From NCBI GenBank assembly GCA_014686905.1, contig GCA_014686905.1_4093.1: a stretch of 64,000 nucleotides of DNA; one strand, given 5' to 3'. The notes beneath the pieces are model-generated. The model saw nothing but the letters and a program-made list of their open reading frames with translations, had not been told where the DNA came from and did no database searches. Positions within the stretch are counted from its first letter, which is position 1, and every line of letters starts with the position of its first letter. The DNA comes from a phage. Below, one piece after another: positions 2,635 to 43,969 of the stretch. A program made the translations under genes and the position numbers.

Positions 2635-3405
2635 ATGACCAGAGAAGCACGTAGCATTCAAATCCAGAAAAACTTCAACTCCATGATGGTTGCTCTTGAG
2701 TGTTTGCTCGACGATAGCAGTACTGTAAAAAGTATGGTTGTCAGTGGTGCTCCTGGTGTTGGTAAGACTTACACCCTGTCTAAACGCCTCCAGAAAGCTC
2801 ATGACGCAGCAGAATGGAACGTAGCTACTATCAGTGGTAAGATGACTACACTGGCTCTGTACGAAGTTCTGTACAAGAATCGTCACAGCACCAACGTGTT
2901 AGTACTGGATGATATGGACAGCATCTTTGATTCTGAAGACGGTATGAACCTGCTCAAAGCTGTTTTGGATAGTGGTAAGCGTACTGTATCTTATATGACT
3001 AGCTCTAAGTACTTGAGCACTAACGGCATTCCTAATAGCTTTGATTTTAATGGTCGCATCGTATTCATTACTAACAAAGATTTAGCGTTAGATGCTAAAG
3101 CTAAAACTAAAATGTCTGCTCATTATGCTGCTCTTATGTCTCGTTCTGTGTACGTGGATTTACAGATTCAGACTAAAAGTGATATCATGATTCATATTGA
3201 AAATGTAATGACTAAGACTAATATTCTTGCATCTAAAGGTGTTAACAGTAACGGCAGTAAAGCAATTCTGAACTGGATGTTAAAACATGAAGATAATCTT
3301 CGTGCACCATCCCTGCGTATGCCTTTGTTGATTTCAGCAGTATATAACAACAATCCGTATGATTGGGAAGAACAATGTGAAAACTTGTTCCTTGAGAAAA
3401 TCTAA
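2635..3405 (+). CDS. P-loop NTPase (AAA-like ATPase)
   Basis: Walker A GAPGVGKT and Walker B-like VLVLDDMD in translation. Confidence 0.7.
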   Translation: MTREARSIQIQKNFNSMMVALECLLDDSSTVKSMVVSGAPGVGKTYTLSKRLQKAHDAAEWNVATISGKMTTLALYEVLYKNRHSTNVLVLDDMDSIFDSEDGMNLLKAVLDSGKRTVSYMTSSKYLSTNGIPNSFDFNGRIVFITNKDLALDAKAKTKMSAHYAALMSRSVYVDLQIQTKSDIMIHIENVMTKTNILASKGVNSNGSKAILNWMLKHEDNLRAPSLRMPLLISAVYNNNPYDWEEQCENLFLEKI

Positions 3406-26520: not shown

Positions 26521-27161
26521 CGTCTGGAAGTATAGACGGCTAAATCAAAATTTTATTTTGTTTTTCCAATAGTTCCCCTACCGCGTGGGGATAGTTTCCC
26601 CGCAGTATCTGGCGTTAGATTTTTCTGAATCTGGAATCATTATCTTATAAACTGGGGGCAATGTCAACGACCTGGACGGATATTTTTAAAAATTTTTTCA
26701 GTACTGAATTTTGGGCGTAACTATGCACCCGGTGGGCTTGAGTCTTTCTCGACTTGATGGAACTATTATACAGTACTGGAAAAATAAAGCAATACCCTGG
26801 ATGAAAAAAGTTTTAATTAATTTGCTTGCCATCCTGGGCCGGACTATGGTACTATATTTCAGTACTGAGAAAGTGCGTTTACCTGCTAGGGTGCGGGAGT
26901 GTATCCTTTTTTTATATCTTGAATTTTGGACGGATCTTCCCACCCCCTGGGGTATCCGCTTTCTCGCGTCTATGTAGTAATTATACGCTTTTTCAGGATC
27001 AAGTCAATACCTAAAAACAAAATAATTGAAAATAATTTAACGCGTTTAAACGGCCCGTAACGCCCTGGAATGATTAGAATGGTGCAAATGTATAGCTTAG
27101 GTGTATTAATGCGTTAGAATGCGTCTGAGGCCGTTTTATGGGGTGTAGTAGTGATTTGGTT

Positions 27162-27729: not shown

Positions 27730-27824
27730 GTTTAATAAAGTACTTGCAAACTATGTTTAATGGCGTATAATGTTTTACATCAGGTGGGGAATAGTTCCCC
27801 ACTATATAAGAGGATTAAAAAAAA

Positions 27825-28735: not shown

Positions 28736-28984
28736 GCAGTTTACAAATCTTTACAATTGCCGGTATTGACTTATTTTGTCAGTACTGGCATAATGTATTC
28801 ATTGGCAGATAAGCCGTAGCCCATAGGGTGCGGGAGTGTATCTATAGAAAAATTAGTTTAGTATAGTTACAATTGTGCACCCGGTGGGTTAGCTGTTGTC
28901 ATGGGGTATATTATGCCAGTACTTGATAATGCTGTCAATACTTTTTTTTACTATCCAGTACAGAAAACTATTTTTAAAAAGTAC

Positions 28985-29012
28985 TTGCAAACTATGTTTA
29001 AAGGCGTATAAT
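28985..29012 (+). promoter_or_regulatory. early-type promoter upstream of structured leader element
   Basis: TTGCAA, 16-bp spacer, TATAAT. Confidence 0.55.
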
Positions 29013-29018
29013 GTTTTA

Positions 29019-29096
29019 CATCAGGACGGGGAACGAAATAAGTAACTTCCCGTTAAGTAGCCCAGGAGTAAGGCACACGAAAAACTCCCCTGATAA
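29019..29096 (+). ncRNA. candidate small structured RNA / leader element between tandem promoters (copy 1)
   Basis: About 78 nt starting CAGGACGGGGAACG..., internal complementarity ACGGGGAA/TTCCCGT; near-identical copy at 38373-38450; no ORF. Confidence 0.3.
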
Positions 29097-29162
29097 AATA
29101 GTTTGACAAATGTTTTTAAAAGCGTATAATACTTACATCAACTACTGAATGAGGGTTATAAA

Positions 29163-29774
29163 ATGAAAACTATCACTACTACTACTTTCGTTATGGATTT
29201 TTCTGAATTGAACGCAGAACAAAAAACGTCAGCTATCGAACTGGTTCGGGAACGTGAAAAAAACTCAAACGACAATTATTTTTCTGAAAGTGAAATTGAA
29301 TACTATAAAGAAACAGTACTACCGGAATATGGCATTAATGACGCTGAAATACAATTCAGTGGTTTTTGGTCCCAGGGTGACGGTGCATCAATCAGTACTG
29401 ACCACGTTGACGCAGTGAAGTTTTTACGCAAGGTTAGAGCGTTAACTAAGTATCGCTCAATCCGTCACCTGCTGAATGAAGATGATTTGGCGATGAGTGT
29501 AAAGCGTTCTCACTCCCACTACTCGCATGAGAATACTGTAAGCGGGTACATTGAATCGGCTTACACTGATTTAACCGCAAAACAAGAAACGTTAGTTAAT
29601 GAGCTTGAGGAACTACTCACTGATACTATTCGTGAATTGTCCCGTAAGTTGTACCGTGATTTAGAGAATGCATATGAGGATCAATTCACTACTGAAAACA
29701 TTACGGCACTGATTGAGGGTAACGAATATCAATTCAATGTTATTGATGGCGTAGTAGAATCAATCGAATATTAA
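29163..29774 (+). CDS. hypothetical acidic protein
   Basis: 203-aa ORF; SD GAGGG; second promoter TTGACA...TATAAT at about 29103-29130. Confidence 0.65.
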   Translation: MKTITTTTFVMDFSELNAEQKTSAIELVREREKNSNDNYFSESEIEYYKETVLPEYGINDAEIQFSGFWSQGDGASISTDHVDAVKFLRKVRALTKYRSIRHLLNEDDLAMSVKRSHSHYSHENTVSGYIESAYTDLTAKQETLVNELEELLTDTIRELSRKLYRDLENAYEDQFTTENITALIEGNEYQFNVIDGVVESIEY

Positions 29775-30376: not shown

Positions 30377-30585
30377 CAGTACTGAATCATTTAATAGACG
30401 GATCTCGGCACCCTGTGGGTTAGTGACTGTATCGTCTTTATGTAGTAATTATGCCAGTACTGGATGCAGTTGTCAACAATTATTTTTCAAATACTTTTTA
30501 TTAAAATACTTGCTATTAGTTTTTAAACGCGTATAATGTTTTGCATAGGGGGAGCGGTTCCCCCTGGTAACTAAGGAATAAGAAA

Positions 30586-31212: not shown

Positions 31213-31240
31213 AGCCCACTCATACAGTGGGCTTTTTTAT
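31213..31240 (+). terminator. intrinsic terminator
   Basis: AGCCCACT-CATAC-AGTGGGCT followed by TTTTTT. Confidence 0.7.
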
Positions 31241-31434
31241 TTTTGTAGTACTGCATACTTTGAAAATAGTTTTAAGAAAGTAGTTGACATTACCGCAGAA
31301 AAGCGTAGAATGTATTACATCAAGACGGGGAGCACTAAGTAGACCGCCAGTAAGTCGAACGAAAAACTGGACACGTCGAGAAAACTTTGATACACTATCT
31401 AACGTAAACTAAACTTTAATTGAGGAATTATATA

Positions 31435-31917
31435 ATGGCTAATGTAAAATCATTCATCAAAGCACTGGTAGCAAATGAAACTAACGTAGCGGCAGAGATC
31501 CTGGCAGAACTGGATAACGATACCATGAAAGCAGTACGCAACAATTTTAACATTGCGTACAGTGAAGCTAAAGAACTGCAAGCCAAAAAGGTAGCAGAAC
31601 TGGAAGAACAGAAAAAAGCCCGTGAAGCAGAACTACAAGCAACAATTGAAAGTATCCAGTCGGCGGTGTCTGGATTGGATCTGGAAGTGGTTGTTGAAAT
31701 GGCACATAAAGCCCTGGCGGTTAAGTACGGTGAAGATAAGCCGGAATCTAAGCCTAAAAAATGGATTCAGGAACGCGTAGCGGTAGTACTTGATAACGGT
31801 GAAGAACATTTGATTCCTGTACGCGGTAACTGCATTGCGGTAGTACTGGACGCTATCAAAGAAAGCGGTATGACTCGCGAGGAATGGATCGAAGCTCATC
31901 GCAAAGTTGAAGCATAA
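31435..31917 (+). CDS. hypothetical protein (Lys/Glu/Ala-rich, probably helical)
   Basis: Start moved to MANVKSF after SD GAGGAA; long 5' leader. Confidence 0.6.
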   Translation: MANVKSFIKALVANETNVAAEILAELDNDTMKAVRNNFNIAYSEAKELQAKKVAELEEQKKAREAELQATIESIQSAVSGLDLEVVVEMAHKALAVKYGEDKPESKPKKWIQERVAVVLDNGEEHLIPVRGNCIAVVLDAIKESGMTREEWIEAHRKVEA

Positions 31918-31937: not shown

Positions 31938-31966
31938 TAGCCCACCTTAAACAGTGGGCTTTTTTG
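31938..31966 (+). terminator. intrinsic terminator
   Basis: AGCCCACC-TTAAA-CAGTGGGCT followed by TTTTTT. Confidence 0.65.
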
Positions 31967-34537: not shown

Positions 34538-34575
34538 AAAGTGGTTGACTCCGGTCAGCCATTTTGCTATTATAT
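34538..34575 (+). terminator. composite hairpin terminator plus promoter (TGGTTGAC-TCCG-GTCAGCCA, TTTTGC, TATTAT)
   Basis: Same architecture as 1157-1204; recurs at 38211, 41480, 43738. Confidence 0.55.
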
Positions 34576-34599
34576 ATTCATTGAGAGATAGCTCACTAG

Positions 34600-34624
34600 C
34601 CCACAGGGTGCATAAGTGTATCTA
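34600..34624 (+). promoter_or_regulatory. conserved intergenic motif CCCACAGGGTGCATAAGTGTATCT
   Basis: Near-identical motif at 38269-38292, 41542-41565, 43797-43820; related copies near 36270 and 28810; reverse-orientation core near 30410 and 26727. Confidence 0.5.
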
Positions 34625-34745
34625 TTATATAAGTATTGAGTACTGAAAACTATTTTTAAAAAGTACTTGCAAACTATCTCAATAAGCGTATAATGTTTTA
34701 CATCGAAAGGGGAAACGGTTTCCCCTGGTAATAAGGAAACAAATC

Positions 34746-36204: not shown

Positions 36205-36295
36205 TTGTTGACATACAATGCCAGTACTGGCATAATACTTACATCAAGACGAGAACGTCACCAACCCATAGGGTGCACAAATGTAACTATATAAT

Positions 36296-36375
36296 ATCGA
36301 TCAATAAATGATCAAAAAAGTACTGGATCAATTTAGCATAAGGCGTATAATTCTGATCAATTCTTGATCAAAGGC
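36296..36375. repeat. cluster of five GATCAA (three as TGATCAA) repeats within 73 bp, overlapping a TATAAT box
   Basis: GATCAA at 36299, 36310, 36326, 36355, 36366. Confidence 0.55.
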
Positions 36376-38054: not shown

Positions 38055-38200
38055 AAGAATTCTTATTCGAAGTAGTGTTTCAAGGTGTCGGTAGTAACCA
38101 ACTGATTCGCTCAAGTGGTTACAATGTTAACCAGGCATGGAATAACATTAAACAAATGTACCCGAACGCTATCACCTATCGCAACCCGAAACAAGTTTAA
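38051..38200 (+). CDS. hypothetical small protein (49 aa)
   Basis: ATGA overlap; followed by composite terminator element. Confidence 0.45.
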   Translation: MKEFLFEVVFQGVGSNQLIRSSGYNVNQAWNNIKQMYPNAITYRNPKQV

Positions 38201-38210
38201 AAATAATTGA

Positions 38211-38250
38211 AAAAGGGATTGACTCCGGTCAGTCCCTTTGCTATTATATA
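38211..38250 (+). terminator. composite hairpin terminator plus promoter (GGGATTGAC-TCCG-GTCAGTCCC, TATTAT)
   Basis: Same architecture as 1157-1204. Confidence 0.55.
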
Positions 38251-38372
38251 CGCATAGAAACAAATCAGCCCACAGGGTGCATAAATGTATCTATTGTTTG
38301 CTGGTGGCTAGTACTGAAAACTATTTTTAAAAAAGTACTTGCATTGTACTTAGAATCAAGTATAATGTTTTA

Positions 38373-38450
38373 CATCAGGACGGGGAACGAAACAAGTAAC
38401 CCCGTTAAGTAGTCCAGGAGTAAGACATAAGAAAACCTCCCCTGATAAAA
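38373..38450 (+). ncRNA. candidate small structured RNA / leader element between tandem promoters (copy 2)
   Basis: Near-identical to 29019-29096; bracketed by two promoters. Confidence 0.3.
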
Positions 38451-38515
38451 TAGTTTGACAATAGAAAGTAAACGAGTATAATACTTACATCAACCACTGA
38501 TAAGGAAACATTAAA

Positions 38516-38791
38516 ATGCGGATTCTACTGACAGCTAACGAAATCGAACAAGTACTGACTACTAACCTGGAAGACTGGAAACGTGAAGCAGATATCCAGG
38601 CGGTTCAACGGCTTAACGATGAGTTAACGCCGGATGACTTAAGCAAGATTGTAGATCCTCAATTCTACGAAGATATCCACGACACCGCGTTAAGCGTCGA
38701 GGATGTACTAGATAAGCACTACATTGATATTGATTTGCAGGTTTACGGTCGTAAAAACTTTATCACTATTCACGACATTTACAATAATTAA
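38516..38791 (+). CDS. hypothetical acidic protein
   Basis: SD AAGGAAAC; 91-aa ORF. Confidence 0.6.
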   Translation: MRILLTANEIEQVLTTNLEDWKREADIQAVQRLNDELTPDDLSKIVDPQFYEDIHDTALSVEDVLDKHYIDIDLQVYGRKNFITIHDIYNN

Positions 38792-40883: not shown

Positions 40884-41468
40884 ATGCGTAATTATACTAA
40901 ATTCATCCGTACCCTGTCAGAAATGGAAACTAACAAAGAGATCCTTTCAGCTTGTCGGTTAGCTGGACTGGAGATCATCGGGGCGGGATCTTCCCGTATA
41001 GTTTTCGCTTTAAATGATCGGTTAGTGATTAAGGTCGCCAATTGTGATGCGGGTGTAGAACAAAATGAAACTGAATGTAAGGTATGGAATTTTTTAGACT
41101 ATGACCGCCCTCAATTGAAACAGTACTTTGCTAAAGTGCATATGCATTTAAGCGATCCTGATAATATGTTTATCGTTATGGATCGGTTGAGTACTGCAAG
41201 CAAAGGCAGTGTAAAGCACGTTAACGCGTGCAACGAATTAAAGTACAATATTAAACGTAATGCAATTGAACGCCAGCACCGCTTTGCTGATGCACTACAA
41301 CACGTTGATGATACACTGTCAACACTAACGATAAGAGATATCAGAAAACAGAATATCGGCCAGGATCGCAACGGCCTTATTAAAGTACTTGATTACGGTT
41401 TAACCCGCAATATCTGGAATCAGTACTATAAAAAGCGGGATGTAAAAGCCGTAACTATAACACGATAA
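40884..41468 (+). CDS. minimal protein-kinase-like protein
   Basis: Gly-rich loop IIGAGSSRIVF, VIKVA (VAIK-like Lys), catalytic-loop-like RDIRKQN, DFG-like DYG, in kinase order. Confidence 0.55.
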   Translation: MRNYTKFIRTLSEMETNKEILSACRLAGLEIIGAGSSRIVFALNDRLVIKVANCDAGVEQNETECKVWNFLDYDRPQLKQYFAKVHMHLSDPDNMFIVMDRLSTASKGSVKHVNACNELKYNIKRNAIERQHRFADALQHVDDTLSTLTIRDIRKQNIGQDRNGLIKVLDYGLTRNIWNQYYKKRDVKAVTITR

Positions 41469-41479
41469 AAAAGATTAAA

Positions 41480-41517
41480 AAAGGGATTGACTTCGGTCAG
41501 TCCCTTTGCTATTATAT
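41480..41517 (+). terminator. composite hairpin terminator plus promoter
   Basis: GGGATTGAC-TTCG-GTCAGTCCC, TTTGC, TATTAT. Confidence 0.55.
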
Positions 41518-41691
41518 ATTCATTGAGAGATAGCTCACTGACCCACAGGGTGCATAAATGTATCTATTATATAAGTATTCAGTACTGAAAACTATTTTTA
41601 AAAAAGTACTTGCATTGTACTTAGAATCAAGTATAATGTTTTATATCGAGAGGGGGAAATGGTTCTCCCTCAAAGAATAAGGAATAAAATC

Positions 41692-43724: not shown

Positions 43725-43737
43725 CAAAAAAGAATAA

Positions 43738-43777
43738 AAAAAGGGATTGACTCCGGTCAGTCCCTTTGCTATTATAT
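43738..43777 (+). terminator. composite hairpin terminator plus promoter
   Basis: GGGATTGAC-TCCG-GTCAGTCCC, TTTGC, TATTAT. Confidence 0.55.
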
Positions 43778-43969
43778 ACGCATAGACAAAAACTAGCCCA
43801 CTGGGTGCAGGAGTGTATCTAAAATATATAGTTAATAACGGTGAGTAACTATCTGCTGGTGGGGTGAAAACTATTAATAAAAAAGTATTGACAAAGTATA
43901 TCAGTACTGCAATAATGTATCTCGTAGGGCGGCAATGGTGCGACGGCCCACAAAGTTAGGAGATTCAAA

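Follow-up and report, generated by a model that had tools for sequence, protein, structure and literature searches.

A candidate pseudoknotted leader RNA behind early promoters of enterobacterial phages, from T7 to jumbo coliphages

The put RNA of phage HK022 is approximately 70-73 nt long, forms its first base pair at +3 of the PL transcript, contains a minor-groove triplex, and acts without proteins (PMC9378689). The subject here is an RNA element of similar size and position in a 64,000-nt stretch of phage DNA (GenBank assembly GCA_014686905.1, contig GCA_014686905.1_4093.1), the whole of which is called the window. The element is a non-coding RNA domain of ~73 nt at the 5' end of predicted immediate-early transcripts made by the host sigma-70 RNA polymerase (RNAP), and the copy that started this analysis lies at 38374-38446. 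Other systems enter the comparison. The boxA sequence is the NusB/S10 site of rrn and lambda antitermination. Pseudo-ToxI RNAs neutralize ToxN and are a precedent for RNA mimicry directed against abortive infection. The preQ1-I, SAM-II, and guanidine-III aptamers are similar in scale to the element. T4-type phages carry mobile promoter/stem-loop cassettes of the PeSL type, which Arbiol et al. reportedly described in 2010.

The window belongs to an Asteriusvirus jumbo coliphage, of which it is the early, terminal-repeat region. Over the stretch tested it shows 100% identity to Escherichia phage vB_EcoM_CRJP21, and its identity to other Asteriusvirus jumbo coliphages of the PBECO4/121Q group is 95-99%. 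Pairwise alignment of copy 1 (29020-29094) with copy 2 (38374-38446) gave 66 identical columns out of 75, with seven substitutions and a 2-nt indel (AACTTCCCGT vs AACCCCGT) as the only differences. A 21-mer of the element occurs exactly twice in the window, and shuffled sequences predict zero occurrences. These results confirm the first-pass annotation, which had placed a second copy at 38373-38450 and had described it as differing from the first at a few positions, quoting the indel as an example. The differences preserve the predicted pairing: they fall in loops, convert G-C to G.U, or are compensatory, as in a C/U change in the junction that is matched by a G/A change in the loop. Copy 1 is identical in sequence to the PBECO4 copy. 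A covariance model of the core was run across the whole window with filters off and returned three matches of 50-53 bits (E ~1e-12). One of these is a third, more diverged copy (core 31334-31372) that the first-pass annotation had not listed. The runner-up scored only 14.7 bits (2753-2785, - strand, E ~0.03); it has no junction AAG and a shortened A-rich loop, and it is probably a chance match.

The element is modeled as an RNA on the transcribed strand with a three-way junction (P1, P2, and S2) and a 3-bp pseudoknot helix, S1. The 25 distinct cores from all lineages were aligned and gave the 40-nt consensus UAAGUAG[GNC]N[stem]UAA[GN'C]..ACGAAAAAC[stem] and the core model ........[[[.(((((....]]]..........))))). 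This model is an H-type pseudoknot in which the 3 bp of S1 connect the S2 loop to the junction and S2 has 4-5 bp. Standard pairs occupy 96.5% of the cells, compared to 15-33% in slid controls with the 3' partners moved by 1-3 columns, and none of 500 shuffles equaled the observed pairing or covariation score. Three S2 pairs are changed on both sides (C-G/G-C; C-G/G-C/U-A; U-A/A-U). The middle pair of S1 is A-U in 17 cores, U-A in 4, and C-G in 3, with one mismatch. The outermost S2 pair alternates between G-C (9) and G.U (10), which means that the pairing is possible on the transcribed strand only. The model was derived from the same 25 sequences, so the slid controls somewhat favor it; the number of independent compensatory types makes an artifact unlikely. 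The window-type class alone (nine distinct sequences) is 99.4% paired under the full model, and its stem changes are two G-C to G.U conversions, one compensatory U-A to C-G change in S1, and one mismatch, with all other changes in loops. This class is too uniform to prove the fold by itself, as 43 of 500 shuffles do equally well. The description of the element as structured in the first-pass annotation is supported by covariation of the fold across phage families.

Pairing is also kept outside the core. The sequence of the P2 hairpin, located 5' of the core, varies between lineages and remains complementary (CCGG/CCGG, CCAG/CUGG, CCACU/AGUGG, ACCCG/CGGGU, CGGG/CCCG, ACGGGG/CCCCGU, and GGGAUG/CAUUCC). 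In the window type, pairing begins ~3 nt past the predicted start site, and P1 (AUCAGG/CCUGAU) continues directly from the S2 3' strand to close the three-way junction. Equivalent outer stems of different sequence are found in copy 3 (GACG/CGUC), in viral contig L116 (CAACGAAG/UUUCGUUG), and in the Klebsiella type (CGGC/GCCG). The minimum free energy (MFE) fold of copy 3 holds both its outer stem and S2. The tail that follows S2 in the T7 type pairs with the P2 loop, giving a second covarying pseudoknot; this helix was scored by a direct duplex test with controls. Six complementary loop/tail pairs were found (GUCAA/UUGAC, GUCAUC/GAUGAC, GAUUAG/CUAAUC, GUCGGU/ACCGAC, GUCAC/GUGAC, and GUCAAG/CUUGAC). 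T7-type loops generally pair best with their own tails, and shuffled tails match the observed duplex length in 0.5-7% of trials per class. In T7 the -35 hexamer of the A2 promoter (UUGAC) doubles as one strand of the loop/tail helix (cf. phiA1122 535-600), and in other genera the tail is not a -35 hexamer and still pairs with the loop. The copy in Escherichia phage CMSTMSU (159-227) is missing the CAG of the S2 5' strand and one C of the 3' strand. These deletions would break S2, and they may be sequencing errors rather than decay, the record being marked UNVERIFIED_ORG.

The element is widely distributed in phages. A blastn search of the phage collection found the window type in 45 records, including the ~146-kb Justusliebigvirus phages muut, outra, and EmilieFrey and the Vequintavirinae A73, W70, A7_1, and A5-4. 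The copies in both of these groups are intergenic, in sense orientation, and flanked by two promoters with other spacers. SD2, PHB05, and JLBYU50, also Justusliebigvirus, have the same upstream promoter and the first ~25 transcribed nt, followed by a plain 5' hairpin and a gene. The element is absent at that site in these three phages and is thus accessory within Justusliebigvirus. Phage muut (2940-3160) is a mosaic that joins the Justusliebigvirus upstream promoter to a copy-1-like element, and its downstream promoter spacer and 91-aa gene resemble the copy 2 locus. The arrangement gives direct evidence for recombination within or beside the element between unrelated phages. The copy-3 core matched Klebsiella, Salmonella, and Erwinia jumbo phages and, unexpectedly, T7-group phages at genome positions ~180-590. 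A T7-type query matched 581 phage records (Autographiviridae), among them T7, T3, K1F, and phages of Klebsiella, Citrobacter, Serratia, Erwinia, Cronobacter, and Enterobacter. In T7 the motif lies between the host-RNAP promoters A1 and A2 in the layout ..CCGGGGUCAACCGG AUAAGUAGACAGCCUGAUAAGUCGCACGAAAAACAGG UA UUGACA (T7 sequence printed in PMC11863960). Among eight Autographiviridae genera the flanks diverge and the core hardly changes. A further variant is present in two SP6/LIMEzero-like viral contigs (L116 and L154). With ~50 Asteriusvirus copies and others counted in, the total comes to roughly 600 or more.

In every lineage examined the motif is in sense orientation and immediately 3' of an early sigma-70 promoter. 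The DNA that enters the cell first, namely the left end of T7 and the terminal repeats of the jumbo phages, carries it. Copies fall within direct terminal repeats wherever such repeats are annotated and are therefore present at four places in records of at least 366 kb and at two in the ~350-kb records. Several records annotate small open reading frames (ORFs) across the motif. Sequence comparison indicates a self-contained cassette that would move horizontally between enterobacterial phages. Neither a set of 72,556 plasmids nor 5,426 complete E. coli genomes contained a similar sequence, and the HK022 genome and the rrnB leader likewise gave none. A strict pattern scan of one representative genome from each of 185,579 prokaryotic species gave a single match, in an archaeal metagenome-assembled genome, which looks like a chance match. 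In a metagenome scan 23 of the 25 matches were chance 18-mers, the real ones being L008 and L018 only. A looser pattern gave 120 matches in viral contigs, most of them by chance, and these were removed through the stem test.

The element is part of a repetitive promoter array. Between 25.5 and 44.5 kb, small + strand ORFs are densely arrayed, each behind a near-consensus sigma-70 promoter, and twelve of these promoters match the consensus at 12/12 positions. Repeat grouping placed at least 27 of the promoters in one cassette family, which consists of AAAGTACTTGCA..GTATAATGTTTTACATC followed by a 5' GC hairpin, a ribosome-binding site (RBS), and an ATG. The promoter layout of the family is AAAGTACTTGCA/TTGACA, a 16-nt spacer, GTATAAT, and ..ACATC, and the stereotyped 5' hairpin is of the GGGGAGAA-NNN-TTCTCCCC type, with the RBS and a small ORF after it. 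The upstream promoters of copies 1 and 2 are both members of this family. The spacer at copy 1 is that of the promoters at 27737 and 28418, the spacer at copy 2 is that of the promoters at 41603 and 44303, and all four of these drive ordinary genes. The element occupies the place of a cassette's usual 5' hairpin and ORF. The block specific to both loci (~29005-29148 vs 38359-38500) contains the upstream -10 and start site, the element, and the downstream promoter hexamers and start region. The first-pass annotation had the whole promoter-element-promoter module copied to a second locus. This was correct for the element and the adjoining parts of the promoters and failed for the spacers of the upstream and downstream promoters, which are unrelated between the copy 1 and copy 2 loci and far less conserved than the element. 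Family promoters shared with other genes and unrelated spacers show that the second locus is not a simple local duplication. The element is a conserved RNA cassette within a recombining promoter array, and the flanking promoters were not co-duplicated specifically with it.

The HK022 put RNA resembles the element in several respects. Both are ~70-73 nt, in sense, just 3' of an early sigma-70 promoter, with the first pair at ~+3; both are self-contained RNAs with an A-rich or minor-groove third-strand feature; and both occur as multiple copies in a genome, with a separate early promoter in front of each. The structures differ. In put RNA a pair of long stem-loops forms a V, stem I contains a triplex, and a pseudoknot is lacking, whereas the element has a three-way junction and an H-type pseudoknot, with a double pseudoknot in the T7 type. 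A search of the whole HK022 genome with the core covariance model found no similarity to putL or putR, the best match (12 bits) lying inside a tail gene. The phages that carry them differ as well: put is found in temperate lambdoid phages and the element in strictly lytic podo-, myo-, and jumbo phages. The activity of put, antitermination and antipausing in cis, requires the zinc-binding domain of RNAP beta'.

The nut and rrn leaders share a different set of features with the element. A perfect boxA follows the motif in the same untranslated early leader in the SP6/LIMEzero-like phages and most T7-like phages. This boxA (GCTCTTTAACAA) is located 24-382 nt downstream of most Autographiviridae copies (e.g., phiA1122 ~795) and only 24-30 nt after the motif in L154 (4088-4180) and L116 (5362-5460), where a boxC-like UCUGUG comes next. 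Some motif-boxA distances (24-62 nt) are of the same order as the rrn boxB-boxA distance, and GAAAAA is present both in the loop of the element hairpin and in boxB. With 17-18 nt and pairing to the junction, the S2 loop is unlike that of boxB, a short hairpin with a GNRA-like GAAAA pentaloop. The window, myophage, and jumbo copies have no boxA, and no N-like protein is implicated. In the window, boxA-like sequences (GCUCUUUAACAA-like) were found only as two-mismatch matches at chance level, none of them near the copies. Its presence in most Autographiviridae and absence near the window copies make boxA a lineage feature and not part of the element, and boxA as an obligatory partner was rejected for the window.

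The flanks of the element resemble PeSL cassettes, with at least 27 near-identical early promoter plus 5' stem-loop cassettes, small ORFs, and mosaic exchange, and the array looks like a set of recombining, PeSL-like cassettes. PeSL describes the promoter array, whereas the element is a more elaborate and more widely conserved fold that replaces the stem-loop and ORF. ToxI and pseudo-ToxI are likewise small, phage-encodable, pseudoknotted RNAs that act without translation. They differ from the element, which is present in the window as three dispersed single copies in place of tandem ~35-36-nt repeats; no ToxN-like partner was found for it, and the E. coli genomes and plasmids searched encode no homologue. 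The core of the element is similar in topology to other small H-type pseudoknots, such as the T2/T4 gene 32 leader and preQ1-I: both stems are short, loop 1 is a single nucleotide, and an A-rich strand is positioned for the minor groove. These RNAs are unlike the element in stem lengths, consensus, and context, and the element has neither a gene 32-like partner gene nor an expression platform. By analogy, the element would be closest in its working to the put and nut leader RNAs, yet it fails structure and sequence membership in both.

Known RNA families and other explanations were checked. No Rfam 15 family matched at gathering thresholds anywhere in the window, and positions 38300-38520 gave only chance-level Rfam matches (E >= 1), none covering the element in sense. 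Hammerhead, pistol, twister, HDV-like, preQ1, and SAM-II RNAs were among the families without a match, and no Rfam riboswitch model matched even at E = 10. ARAGORN found no tRNA or tmRNA genes in the window. A coding reading was rejected because the 15-codon ORF that starts from the ATG inside the -10 of copy 2 is frame-shifted in copy 1 by the 2-nt indel. A self-cleaving ribozyme was judged unlikely, since T7 A1 templates have been transcribed in vitro for decades and we know of no report of cleavage. A CsrA sponge was rejected because T7-type copies do not keep the two CAGGA motifs seen in the window type. Host origin or mimicry was discarded on the absence of matches in E. coli genomes and plasmids and the lone chance match across 185,579 species. 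Homology to the rrnB P1-P2 leader was not significant for the pseudoknot or for the window copies. Separately, the 5' part of the Kayfunavirus-type A1 leader (Enterobacter phage EV136_1 ~366-420) resembles the E. coli rrnB P1 leader (~161-212). The shared segment is GACACGG.AACAAC..CGCCGGGUCA and includes a hairpin with a GGUCA loop; out of 1000 shuffles, only one reached its score. T3 shows the resemblance marginally, and the window copies do not show it. Some T7-like early leaders, with tandem promoters, boxA, and an RNase III site, look rrn-like. Full-text literature searches, which did not extend to older subscription-only T7 papers, found no description of the motif, and they returned the T7 sequence string only in template or fragment listings. 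The fold and distribution are well supported by the comparative sequence data, and the element appears to be a structured phage early-leader RNA apparently without prior description.

Five different, mutually unrelated PHROGs of unknown function follow the motif across lineages. The 91-aa phrog_14947 gene that follows copy 2 also follows the element in phage muut. Synteny is kept by the copy-3 type only: genes related to phrog_27871 follow the motif in Klebsiella and Erwinia jumbo phages. No terminator belonging to the element is found directly 3' of it in any lineage examined, so the transcript would continue through the next promoter into the downstream gene. Strong + strand terminators are located 0.6-2.2 kb downstream of every window copy, and the terminators of the phage include those at 31939 and 39986. 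A pair of strong intrinsic terminators sharing one stem (AGCCCAC..GUGGGCU plus a U-tract), at 31213-31233 and 31939-31960, encloses the copy-3 unit of promoter, pseudoknot, and phrog_27871 gene, in that order, in a moron-like, self-contained arrangement.

Table 1. Coordinates of the element copies, their predicted parts, and associated features in the window
Feature	Position	Strand	Description
Element copy 1	29020-29094	+	75-nt RNA domain; MFE fold z = -2.07
Copy 1 P1	29020-29025/29089-29094	+	Predicted stem
Copy 1 S1	29060-29062/29072-29074	+	Predicted pseudoknot helix
Copy 1 S2	29065-29068/29085-29088	+	Predicted stem
Copy 1 core match	29052-29090	+	Covariance model, 52.8 bits
Copy 1 upstream promoter	28985-29012	+	TTGCAA, 16-nt spacer, TATAAT
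Copy 1 downstream promoter	29103-29130	+	TTGACA, 16-nt spacer, TATAAT
Gene after copy 1	29163-29774	+	203 aa, phrog_5162, function unknown
Element copy 2	38374-38446	+	73-nt RNA domain; MFE fold z = -2.55
Copy 2 P1	38374-38379/38441-38446	+	Predicted stem
Copy 2 P2	38380-38385/38400-38405	+	Predicted hairpin
Copy 2 junction	38406-38411	+	UAAGUA
Copy 2 S1	38412-38414/38424-38426	+	Predicted pseudoknot helix
Copy 2 S2	38417-38420/38437-38440	+	Predicted stem
Copy 2 A-rich loop	38427-38436	+	
Copy 2 core match	38404-38442	+	Covariance model, 50.2 bits
Copy 2 upstream promoter	38339-38366	+	TTGCAT, 16-nt spacer, TATAAT; predicted start ~38372-38374
Copy 2 downstream promoter	38455-38482	+	TTGACA, 16-nt spacer, TATAAT; 12/12 consensus
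Gene after copy 2	38516-38791	+	91 aa, phrog_14947, function unknown
Element copy 3	31324-31377	+	Diverged version without P2 hairpin
Copy 3 outer stem	31324-31327/31374-31377	+	GACG/CGUC
Copy 3 core pseudoknot	31334-31372	+	S1 GAC/GUC, S2 CCAG/CUGG
Copy 3 core match	31334-31372	+	Covariance model, 51.7 bits
Copy 3 promoter	31284-31311	+	TTGACA, 16-nt spacer, TAGAAT
Gene after copy 3	31435-31917	+	160 aa, phrog_27871, function unknown
Cassette family examples	27737, 28418, 28978, 30035, 32431, 34068, 35094		
Further cassette family examples	37478, 38332, 38788, 39057, 41603, 41910, 44303		
Chi sites	14508, 14763, 26221	-	
Chi sites	26233, 32047, 35923, 37382, 38300, 40648, 42055, 43632, 43855	+	

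The region contains two other repeated features. A second repeat family is present on the + strand (28766-28850, 34538-34640, 36208-36300, 38199-38293, 41467-41561, and 43727-43821) and the - strand (26929-26984, 28910-28938, and 30397-30476) and lies directly upstream of copies 1 and 2 alike. Its members have a 12-bp hairpin (AAAGGGATTGACTCCGGTCAGTCCCTTT) that encloses a TTGACT -35 and is followed by TATTAT, and they carry a conserved ..GCCCACAGGGTGCA..GTATCTA segment. This family may represent a terminator/promoter unit or a further small RNA. The window has 12 occurrences of the Chi octamer GCTGGTGG, where 0.55 are expected. Nine + strand sites are in the early/terminal-repeat region, one of them 32 nt upstream of the copy 2 promoter, and Chi is also found beside the Klebsiella copy (L035, downstream promoter spacer) and the Erwinia copy (L036, 1400-1407). 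The pattern suggests that the Chi sites protect the entering DNA end from RecBCD.

By analogy with put and nut, the element may be a cis-acting leader RNA that modifies the host RNAP transcribing it, an interpretation we favor tentatively and rate as clearly less than an even chance. A strong immediate-early promoter used by host sigma-70 RNAP would cause the element RNA to be made first, and the S2 loop would then pair with the junction to form the H-type pseudoknot with its A-rich strand. The folded nascent RNA would act in cis on the elongation complex that made it, as does put RNA or a nut site, and early transcription would gain processivity and withstand Rho, intrinsic terminators, and pausing. 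Speculatively, the near-consensus promoter found next in almost all cases could provide a sigma-dependent pause and thereby time to fold and bind. This mechanism is suggested by the same size and position of put, whose first pair is at +3 (PMC9378689), by the placement of the A-rich strand for a minor-groove triplex, and by the perfect boxA in the same leader in most Autographiviridae. Unrelated downstream genes are also what would be expected of an element whose target is transcription itself rather than a single gene. A number of observations weigh against cis action: the jumbo and myophage copies are without boxA, the T7 A2 and A3 transcripts are without the motif and only A1 transcripts carry it, the downstream promoter in the window gives motif-free transcripts of the same gene, at least 24 other cassettes of this genome do without it, and the fold is unlike put, with nothing in HK022 that matches. 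Three copies behind very strong promoters and a patchy presence fit a dosage-dependent trans-acting or accessory role equally well. Such a role could be that of a decoy or sponge RNA, abundant within seconds of infection and ahead of all phage proteins, that neutralizes a conserved enterobacterial factor or a defense nuclease (cf. pseudo-ToxI and ToxN), which we consider possible but doubtful. It would explain three copies per jumbo genome behind near-consensus promoters, a location in the first DNA to enter the cell, and the accessory, horizontally mobile distribution among muut, outra, and EmilieFrey as opposed to SD2, PHB05, and JLBYU50. P1, the outer stem, closes off the 5' end in the way expected of a discrete, stable RNA, and the near-invariance of the single-stranded UAAGUAG and ACGAAAAAC in unrelated families suggests a single conserved partner. 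A decoy is harder to reconcile with the lack of a terminator or other defined 3' end in any lineage, the lack of tandem repetition, and the lack of an identified partner. Nor does the element closely mimic an antitoxin encoded by the host, since the E. coli genomes and plasmids searched contain no similar RNA.

The remaining explanations account for less of the data. It is unlikely that the element is an RNA stability or processing module in which a 5' pseudoknot blocks 5'-end-dependent entry and scanning by RNase E, or 3' exonucleases, and thereby stabilizes the early transcript. It does replace the simple 5' GC hairpin of at least 24 other early cassettes, the other Justusliebigvirus phages have the same promoter and ~25 nt leading into a plain 5' hairpin, and pairing starts from ~+3; however, a simple hairpin evidently suffices elsewhere in the same genome, and a roadblock leaves the near-invariant loops, the two pseudoknots, and the conservation from T7 to jumbo phages unexplained. 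The small H-type pseudoknot, A-rich third strand, and highly conserved junction are also what a riboswitch-like aptamer for a host metabolite or ion, tuning early expression, might have. We regard this as very improbable: there is no expression platform, no terminator after the element, and no RBS overlap, the next feature is a consensus promoter that bypasses the element, no Rfam riboswitch matches even at E = 10, and the downstream genes are unrelated. Least probable of all is a purely DNA-level role, whether as UP element or spacer serving the next promoter, as a homology linker in cassette shuffling, or as the remnant of a cassette without its ORF. The T7 A-tract does lie at ~-47 to -38 of A2, the position of an UP-element proximal subsite, UUGAC is the A2 -35, and the surrounding array recombines, as the muut mosaic and the promoter family show. 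However, the motif and the next -35 are separated by anything from 2 to 43 nt, and both helices covary with G.U pairs that are valid on the transcribed strand only. The loop/tail covariation includes tails that are not -35 hexamers, and the element is far better conserved than the surrounding promoter spacers.

The element may represent an unrecognized class of phage immediate-early RNA, a mobile, protein-independent pseudoknot found from T7 to 350-kb jumbo phages that would reprogram host RNAP or disarm a host factor before any phage protein is made; we hold this as a serious possibility that falls somewhat short of an even chance. If it is true, an RNA has gone unnoticed for 40 years between the T7 A1 and A2 promoters, an interval that to our knowledge has been treated only as a spacer or "internalisation signal". 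A double-pseudoknot RNA at this location, backed by covariation, would be an additional participant in the opening seconds of infection. Its importance is raised by a core that is almost invariant in at least eight Autographiviridae genera and common to three unrelated myophage and jumbo lineages. Entry of the motif in RNA family databases could improve phage annotation, as small ORFs are annotated over it. A decoy function would point to a conserved host target. If the element modifies RNAP, it would be a second, structurally distinct form of put-type, RNA-only antitermination, this one in lytic phages, and would bear on in vitro studies and synthetic-biology constructs that use T7 A1 templates.

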